A DNA stretch of 64,000 bases. Source: Escherichia phage Mansfield. Under the pieces are notes generated by a model. That model ran no database searches. It had not been told where the DNA came from and saw nothing but the letters and a program-made list of their open reading frames with translations. The translations under genes and the position numbers were made by a program. How positions within the stretch are numbered: position 1 is the stretch's first letter; every line of letters begins with the position of its first letter. The DNA lies in sequence record MK903282.1, one strand, 5' to 3'. Positions 6,795 through 55,835 of this stretch are shown here, piece after piece.

Positions 6795-7034
6795 CTAAAG
6801 CATTCCGTGCTGAAGGTCGAGTTTTCTTGCGGCAAATGACCTGGCACGGAATCGCTTACCCGCTCTTACTGCCTGTCGAATTTTCTTTTGCAAACACTTA
6901 CGGTCAAAATCGTTGCGGTCGACGGCTTCGAGTAAATCACGACGCAACGCACCCAGTGTCGACTTTTCGGAGACTTCAACGCCCAGCGCGGCTGCAACGT
7001 CTTTCAAAACATCGAGTTCGGTTAAAGTTCTCAT
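6795..7034 (-). CDS. hypothetical protein
   Basis: 79-aa ORF on the opposite strand between terminase and portal. Confidence 0.4.
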   Translation of the reverse strand: MRTLTELDVLKDVAAALGVEVSEKSTLGALRRDLLEAVDRNDFDRKCLQKKIRQAVRAGKRFRARSFAARKLDLQHGML

Positions 7035-7447
7035 TTGATAATCCCCTTGATGTCTGATTCTGCCATAAAGATTGGAGTGCCGCCGCCAGGAACAATCGAG
7101 CGCGTTACTTTGTCAAAAATATCGTTCTCTTCAACTTGAATACGATAAAATTTATTTTTGGATGAAGATGGGCACAATCCCATAAATTTGCCGATGCCGC
7201 GAACGCATTCATCTTCAAAGTATACTGTTTCACCTTGAATGGATTCGATGTTGTCTACTGGATAGACCTTGCGACCCAACAACCACTCATCTAAAGTCGC
7301 CTGCAAGACGTTTCGCGCATCTAAAATCCACGGGTCAATAGTAGCACCTTCGTATCGCGCAGCAGTAGCCTTTGCCAGTTCTTCATATTCGCATACGTTA
7401 ACGACTTCGCCGTTGTGCAAGACGACAAATACAATTGTTGTGCTCAT
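7031..7447 (-). CDS. hypothetical protein
   Basis: 138-aa ORF with AAAGGAG RBS; opposite strand between terminase and portal. Confidence 0.45.
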   Translation of the reverse strand: MSTTIVFVVLHNGEVVNVCEYEELAKATAARYEGATIDPWILDARNVLQATLDEWLLGRKVYPVDNIESIQGETVYFEDECVRGIGKFMGLCPSSSKNKFYRIQVEENDIFDKVTRSIVPGGGTPIFMAESDIKGIIK

Positions 7448-13754: not shown

Positions 13755-14372
13755 ATGACTTTCCAAACTAGTGTAGGCCGTCAATATACAACTGGCTTTC
13801 CTGGCGACATCGTTCGCGACGGCCCACAGCGTGGGAAGCCAGGTCGAATCGTTAGCGCCAACGACGGTGCAAACGTAAACGCCATCAGCCGTGTGTTCGG
13901 TTTTAAGGCTGACGTATCTTTAATGGGTACTGGCCAAACCAAAACTTTGGGCGCGCAGGACTTTGAAGTTGAGCTGGGCGGCACCAACTACTACGGCATC
14001 CTCGGTAATAGCAAGCGTTACGCGCTGTATGGCAACTCTACTGGTCCTTTGGGTGCCAGCATGGTTCTGCCTCAATATAGCGAAGGCGAGTTCTATGATA
14101 TGTGCACGGGCCTCGTAGTTGAAGTATTCAACCCAAGCACCAGCCCGCAGACGCTGAACTACGGCGACCTGCTCGCTTATGTACCTAAAGGCATTTCAAG
14201 CGTGAACAACCCGAACAACTTGCCTATTGGTGCAATTATCGCCTATACTGGCTCACTGCCAACTGGCATGGTTGCCATCCCAGGCGGTATTGTGATTGAC
14301 CCGACTGCTATTGCCCTTTCCGGCCCAAGCGTCCAGTCTTCCACTTATACCATTGTACAATTGACTCGTTAA
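13755..14372 (+). CDS. hypothetical head protein
   Basis: ATG 13755 with AAAGGGGA RBS right after scaffold stop; sits between scaffold and capsid genes. Confidence 0.4.
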   Translation: MTFQTSVGRQYTTGFPGDIVRDGPQRGKPGRIVSANDGANVNAISRVFGFKADVSLMGTGQTKTLGAQDFEVELGGTNYYGILGNSKRYALYGNSTGPLGASMVLPQYSEGEFYDMCTGLVVEVFNPSTSPQTLNYGDLLAYVPKGISSVNNPNNLPIGAIIAYTGSLPTGMVAIPGGIVIDPTAIALSGPSVQSSTYTIVQLTR

Positions 14373-14386
14373 TAGGCAGGTGAATA

Positions 14387-15526
14387 ATGACTCGCATTAG
14401 CCAAACACACTCTCGCCTCCCAGCGAGCAAGGTGCGCCCTTTTGATATGCAATCCGTGACCGACGCGGCTGTTTCCCAGCTTGCTCGTATCGGTATTGTG
14501 TTTGATTCCGCGATTGTGCGTGATCAGATTGAGCACTTAAACCGTGCAGGCGCTTTCCGCGTAGGTGACGCCGCGTTTACCGCGCCGCAGACCACGCCAT
14601 CAATCCCGACCCCGCTGCAGTTCCTGCAACAGTGGCTGCCTGGCTTCGTCAAAATCATGACCGCTGCCCGTAAAATTGACGAGCTGGTTGGTATTGACAC
14701 CGTTGGTCAGTGGGAAGATGCAGAAATCGTTCAGGGCATCGTTGAACCAGCTGGCACCGCAGTTGAATATGGTGATTTCACTTCTATTCCTCTGGCAAGC
14801 TGGAACGTGAACTTTGAACGCCGTTCCATCGTTCGCGGTGAAATGGGCATGGCAGTCGGCATGCTGGAAGAAGGCCGCGCGTCTGCGATGCGTCTGAACT
14901 CCGCAGAGACCAAGCGCCAGCAGGCTGCTGTATCTCTGGAAATCATGCGTAACGCAATCGGCTTCTATGGTTGGTACAACGGGAACAACCGCACGTTCGG
15001 CTTCCTGAATGATCCAAACCTGCCAGCGGCGATGACTTCAAACACCACTTCCGGCTGGGCTACTGCGACCTTCCAACAGGTGACTGCAGACATCCGTTTG
15101 ATGGTTCGTCAAATTCGTGTAAACTCTCAGGATCAGATTGATCCAGAGAAGGTTGACATGACTCTGGCGTTGCCGACCAACTCTATTGATTGGCTGTCAA
15201 ACACCACAGACTTCGGTATTTCTGTACGTGACTGGATCACCCAGACTTATCCGAAGATGAAGATCAAATCTGCACCGGAACTCAACGGCGCACTTGGCAG
15301 TGACCCGACTTTCCTGAACGTGGCATATCTGTACGCTGATCACATCGATTCCTCAATTGATGGATCAAGCGATGATGGTTCCGTATTCAGTCAGCTGGTC
15401 CAGACTAAGTTCATGACTCTGGGCGTTGAGAAACGTGCTAAGAGCTACGTTGAAGACTACGCAAACGCAACAGCAGGCGTTCTGCTCAAGCGTCCTTTCG
15501 CAGTCGTCCGTATGACTGGTATCTAA
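14387..15526 (+). CDS. major capsid protein (candidate)
   Basis: 379 aa, AGGTGA RBS, strongly biased codon usage (ctg/ggc/cgt) consistent with high expression, follows scaffold, followed by GC-rich stem-loop. Confidence 0.6.
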
Positions 15527-34859: not shown

Positions 34860-35837
34860 TTAAAAATACTCCATATCGGTAATATCACGGAAGCACTTAT
34901 ACAAGGCAGAGCGCGGCACGTCAACGATGCCAAAGTTAAAGAATTTATATGTCAGATACTTGTTGCGATAATTCTCGCGATTCTCCCAAAGCATTTTTCT
35001 CTCTGCCATAGGCATTGAACCAGCGGAGACGCGGAAAGGAATCATTTCCCCTTTCTCATCAACATATTTTGGATTGACAACTACGAATGAGCCAAGGTAT
35101 CCTTTTGCGACTAAGCCTTCAGCCTCTTTTGAACGCTTAGTGCGACCCAACTCATCAATGAATGCTTCGTTGTTGTTCTCCATCATCTCAACGAAGTCTA
35201 TGATCAGTCCTTCTTCATCGGTCCACGGCTTATCCTTCCACACATCACGTGACTTTGGCGTCGCGCGGCCATGCTTGTATTTGCCCGTCCAAGACTTGCC
35301 ATACAAGCCTTCATAGCCAAGCTGGTCTGCTTCGATTTGCATTGCCGCGTACTGTTCCATATTTTCGATGTTTCGATATTCGAGAGCGCGAAGGAATGGG
35401 CGTCGACCATGGTTGATGAGGTGCTGATTGACTTCAGCAACTCTAGCGCGATAGTTTGCATAACGTTTTTCAAAAGGCAAATCAGGGTCGCTGAAGTCAT
35501 CAAACACCCACCATGTAAAGTTAGTGATTGCATCAGTGTTCATACATGCAGTATAGGCCTGTTGCATGACGTTCTTGTCGTTCGGATTGCCGTCAATTAG
35601 CTCTCCATCAAGTCCGTGAATCAATTCACCCAAGAACAGGAACTCTTTTTTGATTTGAATGTTGCGCAGCGCCATGCCGGAAGTGCCCATTGGCAAGTTG
35701 TCATACGCCATCGCGCGTATGCCATCGACCTTGAAGGATAATCCGCAAGGCAGCGGCACATCTTCACCGCGCTCGATAATTTGCTTACGCTGGCAACCTT
35801 TCATTGGTTTTAATGCTTTGATTTCCCCTGCCATCAC
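34860..35837 (-). CDS. ATP-dependent DNA ligase
   Basis: 325 aa; nucleotidyltransferase motif I KVDGIR (KxDGxR) and downstream ligase-like motifs. Confidence 0.75.
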   Translation of the reverse strand: MMAGEIKALKPMKGCQRKQIIERGEDVPLPCGLSFKVDGIRAMAYDNLPMGTSGMALRNIQIKKEFLFLGELIHGLDGELIDGNPNDKNVMQQAYTACMNTDAITNFTWWVFDDFSDPDLPFEKRYANYRARVAEVNQHLINHGRRPFLRALEYRNIENMEQYAAMQIEADQLGYEGLYGKSWTGKYKHGRATPKSRDVWKDKPWTDEEGLIIDFVEMMENNNEAFIDELGRTKRSKEAEGLVAKGYLGSFVVVNPKYVDEKGEMIPFRVSAGSMPMAERKMLWENRENYRNKYLTYKFFNFGIVDVPRSALYKCFRDITDMEYF

Positions 35838-36427
35838 TCGCGACCCTCATTCATTACTTGTTCCATTGCGTAGGCATAAGCCTGATCAGTCGATTTGATA
35901 AAAGTTCCGTTATACATCACGCCTTTACGGTCCTTGATGTCTTCATAGGCGGCTTGAGCGCAATCAGACAGTCGAAGTCCATAATCATGCGCTACGCCGG
36001 AAAGATAATCGACTGCGGCCATGATGGTGACATCAATATCCATACTCTGATTTTTAGCAATGGCGTCACCAAGCCGTCCGAGAGTCTTTGCTAAGCGAAG
36101 GATAAACGAGTGAGGGTGGGCACCTTTGTCAGCGCAACCGCCGCCGTTGACATCTTCGATTTTTGCACCATTTTGCGCAGCAAGAATAGTTAACACAACA
36201 AGGCAATCGCCGATGTCATCCTTGATTGCGGCTTGTAAATCACAGATGGCCTGCTCTGTATATCCGATTTCAGGGTCAAAGAACACAAGGTCATGGAGTT
36301 GATCAACGTGGTCGGTCAACTCCCCAAACTCGCTAATAAGCTTCGGGTATTGGTCTTTAAGACCGCAACCTTTGATGATGTTACGGTCAGAAGCCCACTG
36401 GCGAATGTTTGCATAAATCTGGTTCAT
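35834..36427 (-). CDS. mazG: MazG-like nucleoside triphosphate pyrophosphohydrolase
   Basis: 197 aa; all-alpha NTP-PPase motifs EFGELTDH and DIGDCLVVL, second degenerate repeat. Confidence 0.55.
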   Translation of the reverse strand: MNQIYANIRQWASDRNIIKGCGLKDQYPKLISEFGELTDHVDQLHDLVFFDPEIGYTEQAICDLQAAIKDDIGDCLVVLTILAAQNGAKIEDVNGGGCADKGAHPHSFILRLAKTLGRLGDAIAKNQSMDIDVTIMAAVDYLSGVAHDYGLRLSDCAQAAYEDIKDRKGVMYNGTFIKSTDQAYAYAMEQVMNEGRE

Positions 36428-40335: not shown

Positions 40336-40754
40336 GACAATTCCTCTAAATACTTGATGATGTGATGAATAGTTCCCTTCACGATTATCTCACGTTGAAC
40401 GTCTGCAATATTATAACGCTTTAATTCAATCGAAGGGTGGACTAAATAAAACATCTTCTCAGAATCGACTTTAAGCAAAACAAATGATGGGTATTTCCAA
40501 TCATTCCACGAAGAAAGAAAGCTGCACTGACCTTTCTCAAATGCATTTCTGAAAGGTGCAGTGGTGGCCCTTGCAGGCCACGATTCAAAGAACTTCATTT
40601 CAAGCCAAAAGCCGCGCCCTTTCCGGTTGGTGCCGATTACATCCGGCACGCCATCACCAGTCATCGATTCGATTCGTTGAAGCTTCAATATTGATTCTGA
40701 ATGCTTCTTCAAAGGTACGAATATGTATTTCTGTTCACGGTTATTTGTTGCCAT
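40332..40754 (-). CDS. VRR-NUC (PD-(D/E)xK) nuclease
   Basis: GVPDVIG...WLEMKF matches PD...(D/E)xK core; start moved to internal ATG 40754 (CAGGTG RBS) to avoid overlap with polymerase. Confidence 0.5.
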   Translation of the reverse strand: MATNNREQKYIFVPLKKHSESILKLQRIESMTGDGVPDVIGTNRKGRGFWLEMKFFESWPARATTAPFRNAFEKGQCSFLSSWNDWKYPSFVLLKVDSEKMFYLVHPSIELKRYNIADVQREIIVKGTIHHIIKYLEELS

Positions 40755-43638
40755 CTGGATACACCTGTTTGATAACGTCGACGATGAACATATCAATGCC
40801 TTCAAGCTTGCGCCCTTTCATCAGGAAGAATGCACCGTTCCCAACGTTCTCTGCAATGTATTTCCCGTACTTCTGGAACTTCTCTGGGCGAATCCTGAAA
40901 CGCATTGGCGAATCGGTCGAATCGTCTTTGCACATAAGGTCAATGAACTGAGTTTCAAGCTTGTTTCCATACTGGTCAAACTCTGCGTAGCGGCCATCGG
41001 ACTGAAGACCTTTTTTAAGCTTGCCGTGCTTTGTATAAATGCCGCGCTCAAGACGTTTACGTATGCGTGTCGCTTCGTTCTCGTCAGCCAGCACTTTCTT
41101 GGTCAACTTGCCGATTACTATTGCACGCTCGTCATCGCCGACTTCCTTCATCTGGCGTATTGAAGCACCGGAAGTAACGCCAATCAGATAGGGGTCATTA
41201 TACGCCCAGCCGAACTTTGTGTGCATTTCTGTAAGGTCGCCGTATTTGACTTCAGCATTGGCCAATGCGTCCTTTTGTTTTTGCGTTAAGGTTCCGGCTT
41301 CACGTGCTTCGATGTACTTCATCGCCTTCACCATTCCGTACCCTTTAGCGTTCATGATTCCGCCGATTAGCTTTCCGTTAGCGATGGTCCAGTTCATTGA
41401 AGAGTGGTCAGGGTCGATTGGCACATAATCCACGCCTTCCTTTGCAAGTTCACGTAATATCGCAATCGTCTGGTCTTCGTCCTTGGCAGCGCGTAAGCAA
41501 GCAGCGGCAAATTCCAACGGGTAGTGTCGTTTAAGCCACAAGGTCCAGTAGGTCACGACCGCGTATGATACGGAGTGTGACTTGTTAAAGCCCCATGACC
41601 CGAACGTCGCCATCGCCTGCCAAAGCTTTCTTGCATCCGCTTCCGGTACGCCGTTATTTATTGCGCCTGCAACGAAGTCTTCGCCAAGCTTGTTAAAGTA
41701 TTCCTCACCCTTACGACCTGACATCGCCTTACGCACAGCTGACGTTTTCGCCCAGTCGAATGAACCAATCTCTTTAACCACGGCCATGATTTGCTCTTGG
41801 TAAAGAAACACGCCGTAAGTCTCTTTTAAGTATGGCTCAAGCTGCGGCACATCATACTCAATCGGCGCACGCCCTGCCGCGCGTTCGATGTATTTCTGGG
41901 CCATACCGGATGACAACGGGCCAGGTCGGCCAAGTGCTGTCAGGTTATCGATTTTGTTAAAGTTATCAACGTGCACAAAGTTGGTTACTGAGCGTACAGC
42001 ATCGCCTTCAAACTGAAATATGCCTGACATCTTGTTTTCGTTAAGGATGTCAAGGACGCTTTGATCATTGAGCTTGATTCCGTACAGCGTTTCAGCATCT
42101 ATCACGCCAGTATCAGAAATGATGCCGAGGGTGCGAAGGCCCAACGCATCAAGCTTCAAAAGGTTAAGATATTCGCTGTCAGGCTTATCAATTTGTGCAA
42201 TCCCTTCCGCCGTTACCGTACAGTAATCAGAGATTGGGTCGTTACACACAATGATTCCTGCTGCGTGAACGCCAGTGTGGGAAGGGTGAATCTCAAGGTC
42301 ACCCATGCATCGCGCGGCATCAGGATATTTAGCCACAAACTCTTGGCCCGTGGTCGTTGTTGCAAAGGTATCCTCCAGGCCGTGACCATAACGGGCGTCA
42401 CCGGATGAGTATTCAAGCAATGCGTTTTTAATGTTGGCCGTTTCGTGATAGCCAATGTTAAACTTCTTACCAACCTGAGCCATTACTGAGTTGGCCTTAA
42501 GCGTGTTGATGTTGCCAAGCTTTGCAACGTTCATTTCGCCGTATTTTTCTTTAAGGTAATCAAACACCATATAGCGTTTGGTATCCTCAAAGTCAATATC
42601 AATATCAGGAAGGTCGGCGCGGCTTACGTCGATGAATCGGGCAAAAAGCAGCTTATACGGGATTGGATCAACTTCCGTGATGCCGAGGCAATAACAAACC
42701 AATGAACCAGCCGATGAGCCGCGAGCGGGTCCAACGAGCATTTTTGTTTTTGCGAATCGTACAAGGTCCGCTACCACCAGAAAGTATGAGTCAAAATCTT
42801 TCAGCTGAATCTGGTGAATCTCTTCGTTGAATCGGTCCTCATATTCCTGAGTCCATTCTTTGATGTGACCTGCCTTAAGTCGGTACTCCATCCCCTCACG
42901 AGCAAGCTTTACCATGTCACCAGCAAGGTGGATAATCGGTGCCTTGCGCAGCTTCAGGTCAAGCCCCACAATTCCGTTTGCGATGTCAACTGCATTGGCC
43001 GTTGCTTGATTCAGCTCATCTTCTGTCAGGATTCCTTTAAGCTGTTTGCGCAAGTCTTCCGCGTCAACGATGCAGTGCGGCTTGACCGTGTCGCGAACTT
43101 CCCAAGCATAAGCAAAGTCAACGTGCTCAGGTGAAGGCATGTGGTTGTATCCGGTTAAAACCAGCGGCCTTCCGTTGCTGCGGTGAGCCAATGCCTGGCG
43201 CTTAGCCAAAAGGAACGATGATGGGTTGACGTCTATATAATCGTAGTCCTCTGGTCGCAGCAACTCCACGGCACCGCCACAGAATTTAACGACGCCATCC
43301 AACGCCCCGAACTCTGCACGGGTCAGTCCGCCGCGCTGTGTTGCAAGTGTCGTAGCGTTGTAAAAGGATTTCAGGTCAAGCGCCAATATCCAAGCCTTCG
43401 GTTTGAATCCCTTTTTCGGGTCCGCATCAGGGTCGATGATTGGAATCTCCATGCCGAACATAGGCTTGATATCATTCTTCTGACATTCCTTTTCCCAGCG
43501 AACGTGACCCCATGTATTGTTATCAACTAATGCCGCGACTTCGCAGCCCAACTCTTTGAGCCGTGCTATAATTTCAGGATGCCGTCCATATACTTCTTTG
43601 AACGTGTAACCGCTGCGAACTCTCAATTGTGGAAACAT
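40741..43638 (-). CDS. dnaE: DNA polymerase III alpha subunit (DnaE-type replicative polymerase)
   Basis: 965 aa; N-terminal PHP region, PARGSSAGSLVCYCLGITEVDP and FNKSHSVSYA motifs characteristic of DnaE. Confidence 0.9.
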   Translation of the reverse strand: MFPQLRVRSGYTFKEVYGRHPEIIARLKELGCEVAALVDNNTWGHVRWEKECQKNDIKPMFGMEIPIIDPDADPKKGFKPKAWILALDLKSFYNATTLATQRGGLTRAEFGALDGVVKFCGGAVELLRPEDYDYIDVNPSSFLLAKRQALAHRSNGRPLVLTGYNHMPSPEHVDFAYAWEVRDTVKPHCIVDAEDLRKQLKGILTEDELNQATANAVDIANGIVGLDLKLRKAPIIHLAGDMVKLAREGMEYRLKAGHIKEWTQEYEDRFNEEIHQIQLKDFDSYFLVVADLVRFAKTKMLVGPARGSSAGSLVCYCLGITEVDPIPYKLLFARFIDVSRADLPDIDIDFEDTKRYMVFDYLKEKYGEMNVAKLGNINTLKANSVMAQVGKKFNIGYHETANIKNALLEYSSGDARYGHGLEDTFATTTTGQEFVAKYPDAARCMGDLEIHPSHTGVHAAGIIVCNDPISDYCTVTAEGIAQIDKPDSEYLNLLKLDALGLRTLGIISDTGVIDAETLYGIKLNDQSVLDILNENKMSGIFQFEGDAVRSVTNFVHVDNFNKIDNLTALGRPGPLSSGMAQKYIERAAGRAPIEYDVPQLEPYLKETYGVFLYQEQIMAVVKEIGSFDWAKTSAVRKAMSGRKGEEYFNKLGEDFVAGAINNGVPEADARKLWQAMATFGSWGFNKSHSVSYAVVTYWTLWLKRHYPLEFAAACLRAAKDEDQTIAILRELAKEGVDYVPIDPDHSSMNWTIANGKLIGGIMNAKGYGMVKAMKYIEAREAGTLTQKQKDALANAEVKYGDLTEMHTKFGWAYNDPYLIGVTSGASIRQMKEVGDDERAIVIGKLTKKVLADENEATRIRKRLERGIYTKHGKLKKGLQSDGRYAEFDQYGNKLETQFIDLMCKDDSTDSPMRFRIRPEKFQKYGKYIAENVGNGAFFLMKGRKLEGIDMFIVDVIKQVYPDGNK

Positions 43639-44180
43639 TATTTACTCCAGATGTCATATACGCCAATTTGTTGGCAGACTTTGTGCAGTAATATTACGTC
43701 GTCTAATGCACGGTGTTTCTGTTCATATTTTCCGAAATATAATTCATACAACTCTTGAAGCTTAACTCTTCGGCCAAAAATAGGCAAGGTTTGCTCGACT
43801 GTACAAATGTTTATTTCTGGAAAATTAACATCACCAAGTGTAAGACCTTCGCGCTGTAATGCATAGTCAAGAATGTTTTTATCAAACGCATGGTTGTGCG
43901 CGATAGTTGCATCCGTCTTCTTGAATATTTCTTTTAGCTGCGGAACGAAATGAATAAATGGTGGATTGCACTCAAGGTCTTCGTTGGTTAATCCGGTAAT
44001 CTTCGTGATGATTTCTTCAATCACAATTTCAGGATTAATTATGAACTCGAAGGTTTCAAGAATCTCTTTGCCATCCGTCAACAGGCCTGCAAATTCAATA
44101 GGGCGCGGCTGCATTCCAAGCGGTGCTTTCGGGTGCACGGTTAATCCGGTTGTTTCGAAGTCATAAGGGAGAAATAACAC
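43638..44180 (-). CDS. DnaQ-like 3'-5' proofreading exonuclease (DEDDh)
   Basis: Exo motifs DFETTG, HNHAFD and HRALDD; immediately upstream of and translationally coupled to polymerase. Confidence 0.85.
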   Translation of the reverse strand: MLFLPYDFETTGLTVHPKAPLGMQPRPIEFAGLLTDGKEILETFEFIINPEIVIEEIITKITGLTNEDLECNPPFIHFVPQLKEIFKKTDATIAHNHAFDKNILDYALQREGLTLGDVNFPEINICTVEQTLPIFGRRVKLQELYELYFGKYEQKHRALDDVILLHKVCQQIGVYDIWSK

Positions 44181-44191
44181 ATTGGCCTCCT

Positions 44192-44218
44192 ACAAAAAGG
44201 CCGCCCATTAGGACGGCC
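44192..44218 (-). terminator. intrinsic terminator between metabolic island and replication genes
   Basis: GGCCGCC-N-GGACGGCC hairpin followed on minus strand by UUUUU, then AGGAGG RBS. Confidence 0.45.
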
Positions 44219-44234
44219 ACAGATTCAAGATTCG

Positions 44235-44786
44235 TTATGCAGTGTACGGAGTACCGTCTTGATTCAACCGCACGATGAACTTAAGGTCGACACCAATGAT
44301 TTCACGAGTATCAAAGATCACATAGTTGTAACGACGCTGACCAGCAATATTTGGGTTGGTGTGAGAGTCAGTTACGACTTCCTGCGCAACCTGAATGCCT
44401 TCTTCTTTAAAGAACTTACGCCATTCAGCAAGTTCAGCGGCAGTCACATGCATACCAAGATGGCTGACCTGATTATCGTGCGCATCAAGCATGTCGATGT
44501 TTTCGTTGATCCAGTTGCAACCCATTGTGTAGTCAAGGATTTCAAGCTCAAGAGGCTTACCAGCGCCGCCATCGGTGCCGTTGCCAGCCTGATAGTTGAA
44601 TCGCAAGTCAGCTTCGTTGGTGCAATCGTCGCGACGACCTTTAAATTCGTCATTTTCAAATACGCGACCAGTAGCAACAACATGATCATGGAACCATTCT
44701 GTCAGGCCGATTTTAGCCAGAAAATCCTGTGCACGCTTAGCATCTGGAATTGACAGGGCGATTTGTTCAATTTTAAAGTGTGGCAT
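44235..44786 (-). CDS. VOC/glyoxalase-fold protein (candidate)
   Basis: 183 aa; two beta-alpha-beta-beta-beta-like halves with His/Glu positions paralleling glyoxalase I (HFKIEQIALSIPDAKRAQDFLAKIG..., SHLGMHVTAAELAEWRKFF...). Confidence 0.4.
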   Translation of the reverse strand: MPHFKIEQIALSIPDAKRAQDFLAKIGLTEWFHDHVVATGRVFENDEFKGRRDDCTNEADLRFNYQAGNGTDGGAGKPLELEILDYTMGCNWINENIDMLDAHDNQVSHLGMHVTAAELAEWRKFFKEEGIQVAQEVVTDSHTNPNIAGQRRYNYVIFDTREIIGVDLKFIVRLNQDGTPYTA

Positions 44787-44806
44787 TTTGTTTCCTTAAT
44801 TAAATA

Positions 44807-45022
44807 TTATTGATTAATTACTGTGTTGTCTTCGTCCTGTTGCTTTTCAGGAGCGGGTGTGACAATTTCAAATTTAGGTTTGGGTAATTCACCTTTAGCG
44901 CCTGGGACTTCAACGACAATCTTTTTGTCAGACTCAACAGGATTTGGAACTTCAAATTTGGTTGTGTATCCTAATACAACAAGAAGCACTAAACCGATTA
45001 CCGCTACCCAGGCTTTGTTCAT
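44807..45022 (-). CDS. small membrane-anchored protein
   Basis: 71 aa; N-terminal hydrophobic anchor WVAVIGLVLLVVLGY, Pro/Lys/Glu-rich tail. Confidence 0.4.
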   Translation of the reverse strand: MNKAWVAVIGLVLLVVLGYTTKFEVPNPVESDKKIVVEVPGAKGELPKPKFEIVTPAPEKQQDEDNTVINQ

Positions 45023-45025
45023 GAT

Positions 45026-45709
45026 TTATTTCCCAAATGGAATATCAGTACCAGACATAAAGCGCCATGCGCCCGTAATTAAGATATGGCGAATGAAGTC
45101 AGCAATTACTTGCGGCTCAGTCTCCAATCCATTCATCAACGCCTTTTTCTGGTATTCAGCAGCATACTCAGGAGTCCAGCCGCGAGTCGCACAAACAGCA
45201 TCTTCAATCTGTTTAGACATGCCAGTGCCGCGCAACTTGTTAGGACTAATAGAGAATACCGTAATCCCGTATTTAGGCGTAAGTTCGTGGGCCATCTGCT
45301 TACTGATCATAAGTGCAGCGGCCTTGGAAGCATTATAACACAAGCTGGACGTCATAGGAATATGCGCAGCGTTGGAAACGATATTGATCACAAAACCTTT
45401 GTTGTCGATAAGACTTTTCAGTGCAGCCTGAGTCGTGTTAACGAAAGAGAAGGCGTTGGTATGCATAACGCGGTTAAATTCTTCGTAGTTGACATCTTCA
45501 AACCAGTTGTTGGAGTTGACGCCAGCACAGTTGATCAAGCCTTCCACGTCGTATTGAGAGAGAAGCTCTTTCATTTGTTTCGCGTTACGGATGTCATAAC
45601 CGTTGTCCAAATCAATACCGACGACTTCATGACCGTAAGCACCAAGGGTGTCAAAAATTGATTTACCAAGACCGGAATTGCAGCCAGTTACAACAATTAC
45701 TTTTTTCAT
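45026..45709 (-). CDS. short-chain dehydrogenase/reductase (SDR)
   Basis: 227 aa; cofactor motif VTGCNSGLGKS and catalytic YNASKAA. Confidence 0.8.
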   Translation of the reverse strand: MKKVIVVTGCNSGLGKSIFDTLGAYGHEVVGIDLDNGYDIRNAKQMKELLSQYDVEGLINCAGVNSNNWFEDVNYEEFNRVMHTNAFSFVNTTQAALKSLIDNKGFVINIVSNAAHIPMTSSLCYNASKAAALMISKQMAHELTPKYGITVFSISPNKLRGTGMSKQIEDAVCATRGWTPEYAAEYQKKALMNGLETEPQVIADFIRHILITGAWRFMSGTDIPFGK

Positions 45710-45775
45710 TTATTTATCCTTTTTTGGACTTCGTTTCGATGAGATAAATATAACTCATCGAAACGCACAAGTAAA

Positions 45776-46648
45776 CTATTTATTGAAATTAATATTATGG
45801 GTGTTGACGAGACGTTCACACATGGCGCTGTAAACACCATCATCGTGTATAGAGTCTTCGTGCTTCAGGCCGCTAATTGCGAAGCGTGTAAGCTTGACAA
45901 TCTTAAGCTCGAAAAGGTGCCACATGTGATAGTCTTCCGGCGTTTTCAACGTCACGCCATTAGGGAAAAGTACCTGCATAACCTGACCTACCATCACAGC
46001 GTTATCGCCATATACGGCGTTGCGTTCACGGAAAGTCGCGGCCATCGCATCAAGAATATCGGCGGCGGTTGCCGGAGATTGTTCAATTTCCACAGCCTTA
46101 TTCTCTTCTTGCCCCGTTGCGCTTGGATCAATTGCTAATTGTTGCACCACTTCACCTGCCTTGCAAAGATTAAATGTAAAGGCGATTTTATTTTGTGCCA
46201 TGGAATTATAATCCATAGCTTCCTTACGCATTGCCGCGAGAATGTCTTGTCTGTCATCAAATACGTTGATGATTCGATAATCGCCATGCCGCAACACATA
46301 CTGCAACCACTTTGATTTGATGGTCATTGACGGACGTTTGTCACCATCGTCTCTCATCTTGATGATAAATTCATCGAAAGGAAAAACATTGTCAAGACGT
46401 TCAAAGGTTGCTTGTCTGTATTTTTTTGGTCTTGCCGTCCAATATTCAACCGACTCACCGCGAAGAGTTGCAGACTCTACTGATGATGCGATGTCAGGAT
46501 AGAACTGATCATAACCAATGCCGCTGTGATAATCATCATAGTCTGACAACGGGCCTGCCACCTTGATGCGGTCTAAGCGCCAACGGTCATCAAACAGCGT
46601 TCCGTCAAGGTCGAATGCGTTTAAGATTTGGTGACTTTTAATGCTCAT
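45776..46648 (-). CDS. HAD-superfamily phosphatase (nucleotidase or 3'-phosphatase-like) with extra C-terminal domain
   Basis: HAD motif I FDLDGTLFDD and motif IV VFDDRQD; no kinase P-loop. Confidence 0.55.
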   Translation of the reverse strand: MSIKSHQILNAFDLDGTLFDDRWRLDRIKVAGPLSDYDDYHSGIGYDQFYPDIASSVESATLRGESVEYWTARPKKYRQATFERLDNVFPFDEFIIKMRDDGDKRPSMTIKSKWLQYVLRHGDYRIINVFDDRQDILAAMRKEAMDYNSMAQNKIAFTFNLCKAGEVVQQLAIDPSATGQEENKAVEIEQSPATAADILDAMAATFRERNAVYGDNAVMVGQVMQVLFPNGVTLKTPEDYHMWHLFELKIVKLTRFAISGLKHEDSIHDDGVYSAMCERLVNTHNINFNK

Positions 46649-47448
46649 CCTTTTGACACTCCATCTTTAGCCACTGGATTGTTGGTGATTGGCATTGCAT
46701 TCCAAAACTGGATGCGTAATTCTTCTTGCTGTGCAGTTGTATCCATCCAATCACGATACCAAGGGCAATGGGCTTTGCCATGACGAGGAAACGCGCATTT
46801 ACCCATACCGATGCATTGCGGCTGTAGTAAAGGATTAGCCCACGGGTGCACCTTGAGGACTTCCGCAACCATTGCGCGAAATACTTCTTGATACTCGCCT
46901 TGTGTGCGCGTGCACAAGCGGTTTGACGCCATCTGCTGCAGCGTGCGCAAGTTGAACTTTGCCATGATATGCGTTTGCATATTAGAAGGCAAAACGGCAC
47001 GTGCATCTTGAATCTCTGCGCCAGCCGCGCGAAGTTCTTGGTATAGGGCGTCAATGGTCGCCATTGCATCATCCCACTTCTCTGCCAGTGCAGCAGCCTT
47101 CTCGTCATGGCGAGTCCAGCCCTTTGGATCATCCTCTGGGTAAGTAAATTTGGCAGGACGAATCGCATCAAAAGCAGAAGATTCCTGAGCGCGGCTTGTG
47201 CGTTCTTGATATGCGCCTGTGCGTGTGCGTACCATCTGATGAGTCATATTCTTTGATACATCAGTAATGTCAAAGATATAGTCCACAAAGTCAAAAGGTG
47301 ACTTGATTGTATCAAGCATGTAGCGCCAGTGCTCTTGCTTCTCTGATTCCGTCATTTCAGAGACAGGCTTGCCAGTCATGCGCGTGTTCTTTGTTTCCAG
47401 CAAAAGGTCAAGTGCATCTTGGGTGTATCGAATTAATTCAACTTTCAT
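46645..47448 (-). CDS. thyX: ThyX-like flavin-dependent thymidylate synthase homolog
   Basis: 267 aa; SPFDFVDYIFDITDVSKNMTHQMVRTRTGAYQERTSR aligns with the ThyX RHR-X7-S region but reads RTR; ARAVLPSNMQTHIMAKFNLRTLQQMASNR matches second ThyX conserved block. Confidence 0.7.
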   Translation of the reverse strand: MKVELIRYTQDALDLLLETKNTRMTGKPVSEMTESEKQEHWRYMLDTIKSPFDFVDYIFDITDVSKNMTHQMVRTRTGAYQERTSRAQESSAFDAIRPAKFTYPEDDPKGWTRHDEKAAALAEKWDDAMATIDALYQELRAAGAEIQDARAVLPSNMQTHIMAKFNLRTLQQMASNRLCTRTQGEYQEVFRAMVAEVLKVHPWANPLLQPQCIGMGKCAFPRHGKAHCPWYRDWMDTTAQQEELRIQFWNAMPITNNPVAKDGVSKG

Positions 47449-47461
47449 TTTAATTATCCTA

Positions 47462-47908
47462 TTAACGGTAATTCACTAATTGTTGATCACCAGAGAAGGT
47501 GCAATGATAAACGAATTGTGCGTTGTAAAGCAATTGAAAACTTTTCTTTGGTTCATTATTAGCACTCATCGATGTGAATACTTCTGCACCGGAACGGTTT
47601 TCACCAATCAGATTGATAAAGCCGCCAGTTGAACGAGGTTGAACGAAAGTGAAACGTTGCATCCACGGAGTACGGTTGGCACCTTTCCCTGTGAATCCCT
47701 GAATCTGAATATTCAGACCTTCTTGCTCGTTAACACCGATGTAAGTGGTAATCGTTGCACCAGTTGTCGCTGCGGTCTTACCGTCCATCGCTTCACAATC
47801 GTAAACAGCGATTGAATCGGAAGTACGGACGGCAGCTTCAGTCGCTTCCATATACATGGTGCCGAGAATAGCAGTTGCGGCAAGCGCGATTCCAGTGATT
47901 CGTTTCAT
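47462..47908 (-). CDS. secreted protein with signal peptide
   Basis: 148 aa; MKRITGIALAATAILGTMYMEATEAA signal-peptide-like N-terminus. Confidence 0.45.
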   Translation of the reverse strand: MKRITGIALAATAILGTMYMEATEAAVRTSDSIAVYDCEAMDGKTAATTGATITTYIGVNEQEGLNIQIQGFTGKGANRTPWMQRFTFVQPRSTGGFINLIGENRSGAEVFTSMSANNEPKKSFQLLYNAQFVYHCTFSGDQQLVNYR

Positions 47909-47973
47909 TTTCGTTTCCTCTATGAGTTCTGCTTCAATGATTAAAGTATACGCCCATTGAAGCAGAAAGCAAA

Positions 47974-48969
47974 TTATTTATTAGCAATATAAGCAAATTT
48001 TTGATAGTTATTTGCTTTGATGAGTTTTTCAACTTCAGCAAGGTCATGAGCGACGTCATCAAGCAAAATGTTGCGCCAGGTAGCAAATCGACCGACACTA
48101 AACACATTCAAATCCATAGTCAGCTGCAGGAGTAGGGCGTGTCGCAAGTCCTTCGGAATGTCGACAATCTTGCCATATTTCTGGTCGACCTTTTCAACTT
48201 CTTCAAGAGCAATGTCACTCCATGAGAGGCCAAAGGCTGTCAACACTTCGTCGACTTCTGCGCGCAACTTCATGTCACGGTAACGAGTGATGCCGCCAGC
48301 GGCTTCAACTGCAGCTGCACTTACGCTGACCAAAGGAATAGTTTCAATGATAAGCGTGTCACCAGTGATTGATGCGCGGTAAGTTCTGACGGAGTAGTCA
48401 GGGAAGTAAATCGTCTGATACAACTCGCACTTACGTTTAATCTTAAAGCGATAAACACGAATATTTGCCTTATCAAATGAGAAATCAAGCTTTTGATCAA
48501 TCCCAGCCAGCTTCATCATGACTGGCAGCGGCGACGTGTTGATGATTGGCGTCTCGCTATAGCCGCAAAGAGTATCAACCGGAGTATTAAAGAATATGCG
48601 GTCACCCAGTTTGTCGACAAGCTGATCATAAAAGTCATCAGGTGCAATATAACGCGTTGCAGTTTTAAGCTTCATAATTGAACGGCTGCCAAACTGATTG
48701 GTGACCTTCATGGAATACATATTGGCAAGGTTGATTGGGCAATGGTCGTGGTAGTAGTTGCCGCGAAAATACACAGCCTTGTCAACTGTCACGGCCTTGA
48801 AAGGGATTCCGGTAATACGGCTTACTTCTTCGCCGCGAAAGCGTAGAAGCGCCTTGTGCTGTTGCGCTCGTTCCCCTGCTTCGTACACAATAGAGTTCGG
48901 GAAGTGACACGCTGTGATAAGTCCTGCCAGTCCGCCGCCGATAATCATTACAGGTTGTTTCATGTTCAT
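47974..48969 (-). CDS. FAD/NAD(P)-binding oxidoreductase
   Basis: 331 aa; N-terminal Rossmann dinucleotide-binding motif VMIIGGGLAGLITA. Confidence 0.55.
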   Translation of the reverse strand: MNMKQPVMIIGGGLAGLITACHFPNSIVYEAGERAQQHKALLRFRGEEVSRITGIPFKAVTVDKAVYFRGNYYHDHCPINLANMYSMKVTNQFGSRSIMKLKTATRYIAPDDFYDQLVDKLGDRIFFNTPVDTLCGYSETPIINTSPLPVMMKLAGIDQKLDFSFDKANIRVYRFKIKRKCELYQTIYFPDYSVRTYRASITGDTLIIETIPLVSVSAAAVEAAGGITRYRDMKLRAEVDEVLTAFGLSWSDIALEEVEKVDQKYGKIVDIPKDLRHALLLQLTMDLNVFSVGRFATWRNILLDDVAHDLAEVEKLIKANNYQKFAYIANK

Positions 48970-49102
48970 TTGTCCTTTGTGGGTGATATGAGAAGTATAA
49001 TAGCTAAATTATTTTACAGCAACAAGTCATTTTATTTAGTACAGATGAAAAAAAGACCCACAACAAGTGTGGGTCAATTACCGCTGCATAACCGTCCTAA
49101 GG

Positions 49103-51772: not shown

Positions 51773-52855
51773 ATGGCTAGTTTAAGAGAAGAAGCAAAAA
51801 TAATCGAAGAGTTTTTGACAGAACTCCAAAGAGGCATTCCAGAAGATGAACGCGTCATGACCGTGTTTGCGCCTGAAGCAACGGTGCAGACCGACGAGCG
51901 CGGCAAAAAGATTAACAGCAGCTTCTGGCCTAAGCCTTGGAAGCTTGGCAAGCCGCTGATGCAACATCAGAACGGTTACGCCTGCATAAGTTCAATGCGT
52001 AAGTCTCCCAACCCAAAGACAGGCGAGATGCGATACTGGCGCACGGAATCGGCTTTCGGTCATGGCATGGCGATGATGGTCGACGACATCGGTCACGGTA
52101 AAGGGTCCAAAGGCGATTTAGATTTAGAGTTCTTTTTCGAGAGTCTGAAGCCAACCGTCATTGTTGAGACTTCACCGAACAACCACCAGCTGTGGTATTT
52201 CTTTAAAGACCCGATTGACCATCTTATCCAGTTCAAAGCATTCCTTGGGTCTTTCGTAAACATGGTACTCAAGAAGGGCGGCGACAACACGATTAAAGAC
52301 GTGACGCGCGTGGGCCGTGTTCCTGGTTGCATCAACAACAAGCGTGTGACTCACGACGGCCCTTACAAATATGTCGATGAGAACGGCGACCCGTTCCGCT
52401 GCCGACTTGTCCATGCAGACTATTCTTTGCGATACACAATCGAAGAGATTTGCCAAGCCTTCGGTTTCCACGTCGTTATGCCGCAAAAGCGTGAAATTCA
52501 AATCGACGTTGACGAATACAAATATGATGCTGTTTGGTATAAAATAGCCCAGCAAATCCTTGCTCGCAATAAGATGGGTGAAGGGTCCGATGGCGATGTT
52601 GTTGAAAACATGTCAGGTAAATGCCGCATCATCTGCCCTTGGGGTGAAGAGCACACCAACGGCGACCCATATGGCGCTTACTTTCGCGGCCCAATCCCTG
52701 GCGCTGAACATGAATTCGTTTTCGGTTGCGCTCACGACTGTCACCGGAAAGGTGAAGGTAAGAAAGGCTGGACAGCTTTTGTTGAAGCAGTAGTCATGCC
52801 TTATATTGAGAATCAACTTGATATGATAAATCGTCGCGCAGGTGGCATAAAATAG
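51773..52855 (+). CDS. primase-polymerase (archaeo-eukaryotic primase-type Prim-Pol) with C-terminal Cys/His cluster
   Basis: AEP-like motifs MMVDDIGH, NHQLWYFF, RVGRVPGCINNK; C-terminal CRIICPWGEEH...CAHDCH zinc-binding-like cluster. Confidence 0.55.
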   Translation: MASLREEAKIIEEFLTELQRGIPEDERVMTVFAPEATVQTDERGKKINSSFWPKPWKLGKPLMQHQNGYACISSMRKSPNPKTGEMRYWRTESAFGHGMAMMVDDIGHGKGSKGDLDLEFFFESLKPTVIVETSPNNHQLWYFFKDPIDHLIQFKAFLGSFVNMVLKKGGDNTIKDVTRVGRVPGCINNKRVTHDGPYKYVDENGDPFRCRLVHADYSLRYTIEEICQAFGFHVVMPQKREIQIDVDEYKYDAVWYKIAQQILARNKMGEGSDGDVVENMSGKCRIICPWGEEHTNGDPYGAYFRGPIPGAEHEFVFGCAHDCHRKGEGKKGWTAFVEAVVMPYIENQLDMINRRAGGIK

Positions 52856-54164: not shown

Positions 54165-55835
54165 ATGTCAATTGAACATGACAATCTTCCAGAGGATACA
54201 GGTGATGAATTTGGTGCAATCTTTGACGAAATTCAAGACGCTGGTGTTTCAGAAGAAATGCAAGCGGCAGAGCAGCAAGGCACCAGAGCTAAAATCAGCC
54301 TACAGCACAAGGCTGTTGAGAAAGATGCAGAGCGCATGGAATGCTACGGTGAAGAAGACTTGGTTGAAAGGGCACGTTTGCTCGCCTCACTTCAGGTAAT
54401 CAAGTTCCCTCACTACAAACCGACGAAAGATGATTTTGTTCTTCAGGCGGACCGGACGAGTGACATGAACCGTTATGCGGTTTTCGACGCGTTGTTTGAT
54501 AAGGGAAGTGGCGTTGTTCCATTCCCTCACAAAGATACTTTTCGTGGACGCTTAGTCGACCATCGCGGCGAAACTTTCACCGACCGGACGTTGGAAGTTA
54601 CAGAGATAGTTGCCGCTGTCGATGCAGCAGGACTGTCCAACCCAAACTCACGTCAGGTCGCTCAATCCTATAAGGAATGGGCCATGCGTTATCAGCGCGA
54701 CGACCTGATGGACTTCTTCTACAAGAAGCTGCCTGAATGGGACGGTACTGCGCGCATTGAGAAATACCTTATCGAGCTATTCCGACCGTTCGATACAGAG
54801 TTAAACCGACAAATCGGTGTGTATTTTTGGCTATCGCTCTATAACCGCCTGACCAACCCTGGCTGTCAAGCGCCAATCTCCATCGCGCTCATCGGCGGCC
54901 AGAACGCAGGGAAGAGTTATTTTAGCAAGCTGCTTTGCGAAGCTATTATGAACGACCGCCACGCAACACCGATTCCGTTGAACTTGGCCGCGCAGAACTT
55001 CAACCCGTTCTTGCGAGCTATTACGGGTCGCTCAATTATCGCGAACGTTGGCGAGATGACAGGCTTTAAAAAGGCTGACATCGAAAACATGAAAGCATTC
55101 CTGACTAAGACGGAAGATGACCTGGACTTCAAATTTGAGGACACGCAGGTTAAACCACGCCAGTGGATTGCTATCATGGACGGCAACGAATACGCAGGCA
55201 TGCAGCGTGACGACACGGGCAACCGTCGTGTATACCCTATATTTGTTGGCCAACTCGCTGACAAGGACGGGCAACCGAACTGGTCTAAAGACTTCCAAGC
55301 TGACCTTTCCACTTTGAAAGAAGACGTTTGGCAGCTGATGGCTGAGTGCGCTGCTTGGATGGAGAAGCACGGCGAAGCAGGTTACAATGCCTTTGTTGGT
55401 GAAACGTCTCGCATGCTTACTGAGTTCAGTAAGAACGAAATGGAACGCGCTCGCGGCGTTATCCGTGATGAGATGGTCGACAACGACCTTGTTGAAGTCG
55501 TCATCACCGCGCCTTATGACCGACATCACAGCGGACGCTGGCACATCACCAGTGGTGCAATCGCTATGGGATTCAGAGCTAAGTGCGGCAAGTCGCCTTT
55601 CTCACGTACCCTTGCGCCGCACATGTCGAAGCTTGGATTTGAGCCTGCGACCTATCGCAACCAGCGCGGTTACTTTACGCCGCTGATTAAGAATGAAGCA
55701 GGGGAATACATTTCTGACCTGATGACTATTTTGGCGTATCTTATCCGCGACGAATCTGACCCTGAAGATATTGAATTCTTGAAGAAGGTTATTGAGCGCA
55801 AACGTTCTTTAGGAAGAGATAAGGATGAATTCTGA
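54165..55835 (+). CDS. VirE-like P-loop NTPase (primase-associated SF3 helicase-like protein)
   Basis: 556 aa; Walker A IALIGGQNAGKSYF, Walker B-like QWIAIMDGNE; architecture typical of phage/plasmid VirE/primase C-terminal domain proteins. Confidence 0.6.
   Translation: MSIEHDNLPEDTGDEFGAIFDEIQDAGVSEEMQAAEQQGTRAKISLQHKAVEKDAERMECYGEEDLVERARLLASLQVIKFPHYKPTKDDFVLQADRTSDMNRYAVFDALFDKGSGVVPFPHKDTFRGRLVDHRGETFTDRTLEVTEIVAAVDAAGLSNPNSRQVAQSYKEWAMRYQRDDLMDFFYKKLPEWDGTARIEKYLIELFRPFDTELNRQIGVYFWLSLYNRLTNPGCQAPISIALIGGQNAGKSYFSKLLCEAIMNDRHATPIPLNLAAQNFNPFLRAITGRSIIANVGEMTGFKKADIENMKAFLTKTEDDLDFKFEDTQVKPRQWIAIMDGNEYAGMQRDDTGNRRVYPIFVGQLADKDGQPNWSKDFQADLSTLKEDVWQLMAECAAWMEKHGEAGYNAFVGETSRMLTEFSKNEMERARGVIRDEMVDNDLVEVVITAPYDRHHSGRWHITSGAIAMGFRAKCGKSPFSRTLAPHMSKLGFEPATYRNQRGYFTPLIKNEAGEYISDLMTILAYLIRDESDPEDIEFLKKVIERKRSLGRDKDEF

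Follow-up and report, generated by a model that had tools for sequence, protein, structure and literature searches.

A ThyX-like gene module beside the replicase genes of a Wifcevirus coliphage: a candidate route to hypermodified thymidine

Introduction

Novel thymidine derivatives of 362 and 390 Da, accounting for about a quarter of T and found in a TG context, have been reported in the DNA of the Pbunavirus phages F8 and 14-1 and described as sugar-alcohol and pentose derivatives (PMC12191111). That END nuclease preprint names no biosynthetic genes and such phages are without known modification genes (PMC12191111); none of the papers citing it adds any. Wifcevirus, a distant relative of Pbunavirus (PMC11990801), is a genus of coliphages whose restriction resistance has been flagged as unexplained in published work. 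Here we describe a cluster of seven genes at positions 44235-48969, on the minus strand, of a 64,000-nucleotide stretch of Escherichia phage Mansfield (sequence record MK903282.1; this whole stretch is referred to as the window). The cluster encodes a divergent relative of the flavoenzyme ThyX together with a putative flavin adenine dinucleotide (FAD)-dependent protein of 331 residues (p331), a phosphatase of the HAD superfamily fused to a DUF6378-type domain (p290), a short-chain dehydrogenase/reductase (SDR), a putative distant member of the VOC (glyoxalase/dioxygenase-fold) proteins (p183) and two small proteins (p148 and p71).

On balance we favour, by a modest degree, the reading that this cluster is the Wifcevirus copy of a widespread phage module that would make a sugar- or polyol-bearing thymidine (a C5-substituted deoxyuridine) as a protection against restriction. 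Base modification is favoured because the ThyX-like clade has lost signature residues, because it is co-inherited with p331 and HAD-DUF6378 across very distant phages, because relatives with the core of the module carry hypermodified thymidine, and because Wifcevirus shows broad restriction resistance without a known mechanism. A search of the literature on ThyX and hypermodification, on DUF6378 and on Wifcevirus DNA chemistry found no assignment of this kind.

Composition and distribution of the module

All seven co-directional ORFs (open reading frames) predicted in an initial annotation, made from the letters of the sequence, are present, and the terminator with which it closed the cluster was recovered as a hairpin (Table 1). 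As there are terminators at both ends, the seven genes can be treated as a discrete unit. The region shows 92-95% nucleotide identity to the Wifcevirus coliphages ECO71P1, kaset, Bas98-101, WFH, WFC, ECML-117 and FEC19, and p290 and the 'phosphatase' of Escherichia phage Mansfield have the same sequence (100% identity). Public annotations of the cluster genes comprise hypothetical proteins, 'thymidylate synthase', 'polynucleotide kinase/phosphorylase' and 'FabG-like reductase'.

With p331 as bait, 80 IMG/VR loci were recovered, and in 79 of these all detectable homologues are collinear on one strand in the order p331, ThyX-like, HAD, DUF6378, (SDR, VOC), exonuclease and DnaE. That 79 of 80 independent loci repeat the same gene order goes far beyond chance, and the comparison of neighbourhoods across related phages that had been proposed in the initial annotation comes out in favour of a real unit. 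Presence was counted in the 43 loci whose downstream flank reaches 7 kb or more: the ThyX-like gene occurs in 43, DUF6378 in 42, HAD in 39, VOC in 33 and SDR in 32, with both exonuclease and DnaE downstream of the module in 42. The 'five-enzyme island centred on ThyX' of the initial annotation thus gives way to a core of three genes and four domains (p331, ThyX-like and HAD-DUF6378) to which an SDR/VOC pair is accessory in about three quarters of loci; the p183-type VOC gene is always accompanied by the SDR gene. A 'long' variant with SDR and VOC is found in Wifcevirus, Myosmarvirus and in Xanthomonas, Pantoea and Luteibacter phages, and a 'short' variant without them in Pbunavirus and others. 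At the more distant loci protein identities fall to 30-45%, and many of these lack the helicase and the lysine/alanine/glutamate-rich (K/A/E-rich) protein of Wifcevirus and Pbunavirus. Homologues of p148 are confined to three Wifcevirus-like loci among the 80 and p71 was detected in one; because of this confinement both are probably Wifcevirus-specific passengers outside the pathway.

The association extends beyond collinear loci. Among GenBank phage records p331 is found in 361 and the DUF6378 subfamily in 363, with nearly identical host distributions. In Microbacterium phage RikSengupta (4234-13105 of its stretch) an FAD-Rossmann 'oxidoreductase', a HAD phosphatase, an SDR (32% identity), a VOC homologue (33%) and a free-standing DUF6378 protein (49% over the domain) occur in that order and are followed by DnaE. 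In Gordonia phage Ranch and Mycobacterium phage Hawkeye (386-8927) an oxidoreductase, an NT5C-like HAD 'nucleotidase', an SDR, DnaE and a ThyX-like gene lie within 8-10 kb. Gene order in these actinophages differs from that of the window. Their oxidoreductases have in common with p331 the N-terminal region and a C-terminal G-R-[FY]-[AG]-x-W motif, and profile comparisons with p331 gave E 1.8e-4, 1.4e-4 and 3.3e-5 over partial regions; homology is probable, though weak. A candidate VOC homologue in Ranch, gp74, was dropped at 19% identity. RikSengupta also carries a pyrimidine-dimer-glycosylase-like gene (gp54, a weak match) and, nearby, the glycosyltransferase gp65, and in Ranch there is a methyltransferase inside the module.

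The ThyX-like clade and its active site

The window protein matches the Thy1 family over the full profile (positions 2-191 of 191) with 106.5 bits, the cut-off being 24.8, which upholds its identification as a ThyX-like enzyme in the initial annotation. It falls below the cut-off of the NCBIfam equivalog TIGR02170 (82.1 bits against 87.9). To place this in the context of the active site, 77 module-linked ThyX-like sequences were aligned and numbered by Thermotoga maritima ThyX (TM0449). Q75, R78, R80, R90, R147, R165 and R174 are invariant in all 77. In the same 77 sequences H53 is replaced by Ile, H79 (the centre of the RHR signature) by Thr, Ser or Asn, and Y91 by Val, Ala or Thr, and throughout the clade H59 is Phe and H178 is Arg. 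The window protein accordingly does not carry the ThyX signature RHR(X7-8)S followed by xRY, R-T-R-T-G-A-Y-Q-E-R-T-S-R-A standing in place of RHRxxSxxxxSxRY. The Gordonia and Mycobacterium copies are likewise without H53, H79 and Y91 and have an RQR motif, whereas control ThyX proteins of Staphylococcus, Clostridium and Bacillus phages are canonical, with GH...LEH, RHR and QSQRY kept.

In ThyX the retained residues, Q75 and the arginines, hold deoxyuridine monophosphate (dUMP), while the lost residues contact flavin, folate and the deoxyribose 3'-OH; His53 stacks on folate and flavin, and the RHR signature is the Myllykallio motif. This pattern suggests that the clade has retained nucleotide binding and that its chemistry, or the form of its substrate, has been altered. 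A C-terminal extension in which cysteines are conserved is present in many members (Cys179, 212, 218 and 228 in the window). The four cysteines (46645-46910; C179 in an R-L-C beside an active-site Arg) are common to the copies of Wifcevirus, Myosmarvirus Hera, F8 and Gordonia Ranch and are not found in T. maritima ThyX or a Rhizobium phage copy. They may form a metal or Fe-S site.

The accompanying proteins

Sequence searches with p331 gave no match in Pfam or NCBIfam and nothing usable in the Protein Data Bank (PDB). An AlphaFold2 model (predicted local distance difference test, pLDDT, 87.8) shows a two-domain FAD flavoprotein and, together with a fold search, agrees with the FAD-binding Rossmann protein of the initial annotation. 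The model would place p331 in the structural class of the amine oxidases, UDP-galactopyranose mutase (UGM) and renalase. Foldseek E-values fail to separate UGM from monoamine oxidase, protoporphyrinogen oxidases, renalase and halogenases, and UGM (Glf) differs from p331 in that identity is just 13-16%, p331 is shorter and there is no match to Pfam GLF. In an hhalign comparison with a hand-entered E. coli Glf sequence the first 20 residues, containing the Rossmann motif, were the only part that aligned. The label 'UGM-like' is thus a lead suggested by the model and not an assignment.

The AlphaFold2 model of p290 (pLDDT 89.8) has two domains. In the N-terminal domain the HAD superfamily motifs are present, with D13-L-D15-G and with D13, D15, T71, K111, D131 and D132 invariant, in line with the HAD phosphatase first predicted here. 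Its closest solved relatives are the 3'-phosphatase of T4 polynucleotide kinase/phosphatase (Pnkp; 5uj0, profile-against-PDB E 1.5e-7 and Foldseek E 7.5e-5) and the class B/C nucleotidases. The likeness to T4 Pnkp is one of the HAD 3'-phosphatase domain; p290 is without the kinase domain and carries the DUF6378 fusion instead, and the actinophage equivalent resembles NT5C deoxynucleotidase more than T4 Pnkp. The C-terminal bundle (residues 195-280) has predicted helices at 195-213, 216-227, 237-258 and 264-280. PF19905 (DUF6378) is matched by 15 of 22 family members, with a best E of 6.6e-5, the window copy lying below the reporting threshold, and in a Microbacterium phage the domain is encoded by a gene of its own, whereas elsewhere it is HAD-fused. 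No PDB relative of this region was found by sequence, and the fold search of the p290 model gave HAD matches only. Two other identities were set aside: a MazG-type pyrophosphatase is unsupported, with hhalign to the MazG-like protein of the window showing no relation, and a sugar-isomerase fusion, suggested by the label 'phosphoheptose isomerase' on Rhizobium phage gp205, was dropped when Pfam identified that protein as HAD-like plus DUF6378.

The oxidoreductase was correctly identified as an SDR, with TGCNSGLG at 8-15 (TGxxxGxG), NCAG at 60, S112 and Y125-NAS-K129 all present. For p183 the assignment to the VOC/glyoxalase fold is weak: the window copy is below the Glyoxalase_4 cut-off (E 5.5e-3; 17.4 against 27 bits), and 9 of 16 members of its family match that profile (best E 1.8e-5). 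The VOC-like family has no PDB match by sequence. Conserved residues of p183 are E80, E82, H109, H113 and H142, and these histidines and glutamates could bind a metal.

Modified thymidine in F8 and 14-1

Both F8 and 14-1 carry the short module. The reported adducts correspond to thymidine + C4H8O4 (362.3 Da) and thymidine + C5H8O5 (390.3 Da). A deoxyuridine-5-yl group bearing a 1-deoxypentitol chain is C14H22N2O9, 362.3 Da, the mass found in F8, and a chain derived from a keto-hexose gives C15H22N2O10, 390.3 Da, the mass found in 14-1. The reported masses are as compatible with carbon-carbon (C-C)-linked 5-(polyhydroxyalkyl)-deoxyuridine as with O-linked forms; O-linked ethers and glycosides of 5-hydroxymethyldeoxyuridine (5-hmdU) share their formulae with the C-C-linked products, and mass alone cannot decide between them.

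Between the two phages the FAD protein is 97% identical, the ThyX-like protein 94% and HAD-DUF6378 80% with an indel. The product of ORF070 (1031-2227 of the F8 stretch; ORF70 of 14-1, 13997-15301), of 398 and 434 residues respectively, is 56% identical where its neighbours are 91-99%. It showed no family match and no enzyme signature, and may be a diversifying early protein.

Restriction resistance and the palindrome census

When a phage withstands restriction systems of types I, II and III together, hypermodified DNA is the usual cause. In the BASEL data Bas98 gave 9.6e9 plaque-forming units on the vector control, 1.04e10 on EcoCFT_I, 8.8e9 on EcoRI, 1.0e10 on EcoRV and 1.08e10 on EcoCFT_II, and no plaques on EcoP1_I. 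The recognition sequences of EcoCFT_I and EcoCFT_II were not found by term searches of the text and supplements of that paper; its S2 site table is reproduced exactly with EcoCFT_II as CACAG (93 sites) and EcoCFT_I as GAG(N7)GTCA (4 sites). There are 18 EcoRI sites in Bas98 and 16 in the window. TG/CA is contained in the sites of EcoKI (for which the Bas98 entry is blank), EcoCFT_I and EcoCFT_II, and is not contained in those of EcoP1, EcoRI and EcoRV. The contrast between the EcoKI, EcoCFT_I and EcoCFT_II sites and the EcoP1 site fits a TG motif.

A census of six-base palindromes in the window showed that none of the 16 with TG/CA is absent, against 16 of the 48 without (Fisher p 0.0066), and with mononucleotide expectations the contrast has p 3e-4. 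Corrected for dinucleotide composition, TG palindromes compare with the others as 0.86 vs 0.70 in the window, 0.98 vs 0.78 in F8, and 0.86 vs 0.65 and 0.88 vs 0.74 in pooled module loci, the controls being 0.57 vs 0.58 (lambda), 0.46 vs 0.47 (T7) and 0.51 vs 0.74 (T1). Around the GATC core the window has AGATCT 1, CGATCG 0, GGATCC 0 and TGATCA 49; in the same order F8 has 1, 0, 2 and 28 and lambda 6, 3, 5 and 8. The 49 copies of TGATCA (18 expected) are dispersed and have no conserved flanks. This trend is a weak supporting signal for modification, in the right direction. Over the whole 64 kb many six-base palindromes are extremely avoided: 16 of them, including GGATCC, GGTACC, GAGCTC, CTCGAG, CCCGGG and AGCGCT, have zero copies although 10-13 copies of each are expected; CTAG occurs 22 times and GATC 109 times, against 247 expected for each.

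A proposed pathway

In the pathway that we favour, the ThyX-like enzyme would perform C5 chemistry on a deoxyuridine nucleotide, stopping short of or departing from deoxythymidine monophosphate (dTMP) and yielding, for example, a 5-hydroxymethyl or 5-methylene-type intermediate. p331 and HAD-DUF6378 would then attach and dephosphorylate a side chain derived from a sugar phosphate. Reduction or isomerisation of this chain would fall, in the long variant, to the SDR and VOC proteins, and the Wifcevirus adduct would thereby differ from that of Pbunavirus. The modified nucleotide would be dealt with by the DnaE/exonuclease replicase that the phage encodes beside the module, and a sequence-specific step (TG in Pbunavirus) could fall either before or after replication.

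A more elaborate version, which is speculative and which we regard as doubtful, has the two flavoenzymes cooperating in alkylation of the base with formation of a C-C bond. The reduced flavin of p331 would open a sugar (phosphate) as a flavin-N5 iminium, in the manner of UGM, and the ThyX-like enzyme would transfer to C5 of dUMP a flavin-N5-bound sugar carbon in place of methylene. This would yield a 5-(polyhydroxyalkyl)-deoxyuridine from which HAD would remove the terminal phosphate and whose chain SDR/VOC would tailor.

Several points weigh against the assignment of the module to thymidine modification. The chemistry was measured in Pbunavirus DNA, and the case for Wifcevirus is built on genes and restriction resistance. 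That resistance includes EcoRI and EcoRV, whose sites lack TG, so that carrying the Pbunavirus motif over unchanged leaves part of it unexplained; should modification be responsible, Wifcevirus must have a motif or adduct other than that of F8. The palindrome signal is non-significant after dinucleotide correction (label-permutation p 0.17 in the window), and lambda too favours TG-flanked GCGC and GGCC cores. TG specificity needs a step at the level of DNA, and the module has no obvious glycosyltransferase, DNA-binding or base-flipping enzyme. Comparison of F8 with 14-1 singles out no module gene for their differing adducts. The good Thy1 score of the ThyX-like protein leaves room for a functional thymidylate synthase whose active site is unusual. 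Finally, synteny within one large assemblage of DnaE phages could reflect vertical inheritance of a replication block; the split and rearranged modules of unrelated actinophages make vertical inheritance alone a less sufficient explanation.

Alternative explanations

The initial annotation had left the choice between dTMP synthesis with folate recycling and a new route of base modification. Nothing supports folate recycling, and between the other two the evidence favours base modification, short of proof. An ordinary supply of nucleotides is the main rival, although an unlikely one. A working ThyX would boost dTMP to sustain rapid replication, HAD-DUF6378 would be a PNKP-type 3'-phosphatase or nucleotidase for DNA repair or salvage, and p331, SDR and VOC would be unrelated auxiliary redox proteins, with tasks such as the maintenance of reduced flavin or NAD(P)H, that stay with the replication genes by descent. 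This explains the Pfam match and the location: the Thy1 profile is covered in full, the dUMP-binding arginines are all kept, the HAD domain is most like T4 Pnkp and the nucleotidases, the module lies inside a replication block that holds ligase, helicases and polymerase, and the public annotation is thymidylate synthase. It does not account for the loss throughout the clade of the RHR histidine, the His53-aligned residue and Tyr91, all kept in control phage ThyX, or for the score below the TIGR02170 cut-off. The nearly one-to-one phyletic pattern with p331 and the DUF6378 subfamily, which takes in actinophages of other gene order, also speaks against it, and both the Pbunavirus adduct and the Wifcevirus restriction resistance would be left without candidate genes.

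Considerably less probable is a small-molecule pathway (a sugar, cofactor or signalling nucleotide) serving host takeover or counter-defence, with resistance coming from a DNA-coating or anti-restriction protein. Sugar-phosphate or small-molecule pathways typically contain enzymes of these types (phosphatase, SDR, VOC and FAD oxidoreductase), p331 resembles renalase, which is a nucleotide-cofactor oxidase, and a conserved K/A/E-rich, probably DNA-binding protein is encoded directly upstream. Such a pathway would sit uneasily with the constant linkage to a dUMP-binding ThyX-like protein and the replicase, and with Pbunavirus DNA that is chemically modified in genomes where no other candidate enzymes are annotated. 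Nor is any anti-restriction protein, Ocr and ArdA included, known to block type I, II and III systems together.

It is least likely that the DNA is hypermodified by enzymes among the small unannotated early genes elsewhere, the cluster giving indirect support: about half of the genes of the genome are 'hypothetical' and the strongest difference between F8 and 14-1 is in ORF070, which lies outside the module, but the unannotated genes are mostly of fewer than 170 residues, lack enzyme signatures and, unlike the module, show no conservation from Wifcevirus to Pbunavirus or to the more distant module carriers.

The surrounding locus

Features of the cluster and its neighbours are collected in Table 1. 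The initial annotation had placed the cluster next to the replication genes and a MazG-like pyrophosphohydrolase; this is correct for the exonuclease and DnaE genes, which are directly adjacent (40741-44180), but not for the MazG-like gene, which is at some distance. F8 and Gordonia Ranch likewise have a MazG-like gene together with DnaE. By analogy with other hypermodifying phages, the MazG-like protein could clear a canonical deoxynucleoside triphosphate.

Table 1. Coordinates of the cluster, its domains and neighbouring features in the window
Feature	Position	Strand	Remarks
p331, FAD-dependent two-domain flavoprotein, 331 aa	47974-48969	-	core gene; phrog_4828; GxGxxG at residues 11-16
p148, 148 aa, signal-peptide-like N-terminus	47462-47908	-	no family match
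ThyX-like flavoenzyme, divergent, 267 aa	46645-47448	-	core gene; Thy1 E 1.9e-30
Variant ThyX signature, R74-T-R-T-G-A-Y-Q-E-R-T-S-R-A87	47188-47229	-	from translation and alignments with T. maritima ThyX
p290, 290 aa, HAD phosphatase + DUF6378 fusion	45776-46648	-	core gene
p290 N-terminal HAD domain	46124-46648	-	D13-x-D15 nucleophile; HAD_PNKP E 1.8e-7
p290 C-terminal four-helix bundle, DUF6378-type	45779-46087	-	core domain; AlphaFold2 model, PF19905
SDR, classical, 227 aa	45026-45709	-	accessory, 'long' variant; adh_short E 1.2e-31
p71, 71 aa, N-terminal hydrophobic helix / membrane anchor	44807-45022	-	no family match
p183, 183 aa, putative distant VOC (glyoxalase/dioxygenase-fold)	44235-44786	-	accessory; sub-threshold Glyoxalase_4
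Intrinsic terminator, downstream cluster end	44199-44218	-	8-bp stem, 7 G-C pairs, T5 tail
Intrinsic terminator, upstream edge, 5' of p331	49055-49075	-	8-bp stem, T7 tail; after K/A/E-rich gene
DnaE-like polymerase	40741-43638	-	directly downstream replication block
DEDDh exonuclease	43638-44180	-	RNase_T E 1.6e-21
MazG-like gene	35834-36427	-	Pfam E 3e-3, below cut-off; ~7.8 kb from cluster
K/A/E-rich protein, 281 aa	49103-49948	-	phrog_4765; GenBank label 'TolA'

The K/A/E-rich protein has a long stretch of low complexity, rich in Lys, Ala and Glu, and ends in a conserved domain of some 100 residues. Its gene is kept upstream of p331 in Wifcevirus, Myosmarvirus and Pbunavirus and has its own terminator after it. 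The protein may coat DNA and be an alternative contributor to genome protection. Two primase-type genes, at 51773-52855 and 54165-55835 on the plus strand, diverge from the block of module and helicase genes; one of the pair has a RepB-primase N-terminal domain and the other is VapE-like. In Bas98 an extra ORF of 55 residues (Bas98_0048, 7026-7193 of its stretch) stands between the genes for the membrane-anchored protein and the SDR and is not present in the window, which is one sign that the content of small ORFs in the cluster varies within the genus.

Significance and comparison with known systems

If the favoured reading is true, the module represents a new hypermodification route of ThyX type and not of ThyA type, provides first functions for phrog_4828 and DUF6378, and makes the trait one shared by hundreds of phages that infect Proteobacteria and Actinobacteria. 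The presence of its genes would also help to predict which phages are sensitive to modification-dependent nucleases, the END family among them. Pbunaviruses belong to the Pseudomonas phages most often chosen for therapy, and Wifceviruses stand out as unusually fast coliphages; for either group, the clinical strains that can be killed are determined by how the genome is protected. The module is a concrete candidate gene set for both the Pbunavirus adduct of the 2025 study and the resistance of Wifcevirus.

One comparison is with F8 and 14-1, which have the core of the module in the same position as the phage of the window. They differ in being without SDR and VOC, and adducts and TG motif have been measured in Pbunavirus whereas Wifcevirus is known from restriction resistance. 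Canonical ThyX (PF02511; TM0449) is of the same fold family and the module clade keeps its dUMP-binding Gln and Arg residues; the clade departs from it in the replacement of the RHR His, His53, His59, Tyr91 and His178 and, in many members, in the Cys-bearing extension. A re-purposed homologue of thymidylate synthase, as the first step towards a sugar-bearing pyrimidine, has a parallel in the 5-hydroxy-dCMP synthase of RB69/DLP3, in which new C5 chemistry is combined with arabinosylation and for which the methods headings of the source point to flavin involvement (PMC13326640). The enzyme there is a ThyA homologue acting on dCMP, with glycosyltransferases acting on DNA, whereas here the enzyme is of ThyX type, the base is T and the module is without a glycosyltransferase.

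The pathways of M6, ViI, SP10 and PhiW-14 have the same kind of outcome as that proposed here, in that part of the thymidines is converted to a bulky C5 derivative that blocks restriction; their genes likewise lie in clusters with replication genes, and the modification is partial and varies with context. These pathways, which Lee et al. are said to have described in 2018 and 2021, reportedly employ a ThyA-type dUMP hydroxymethylase, a P-loop 5-hmdU DNA kinase, transferases of the aGPT-pyrophosphorylase type and pyridoxal phosphate or radical S-adenosylmethionine enzymes. No enzyme of this 5-hmdU route was found in the Bas98 annotation or among the window ORFs scanned (small ORFs were scanned in part, and the unassigned remainder are too small), which agrees with the earlier remark that the cluster matches no textbook hypermodification pathway. 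Hypermodification of DNA is itself well known; the enzyme set of the present module has no counterpart in those pathways and would be unprecedented.

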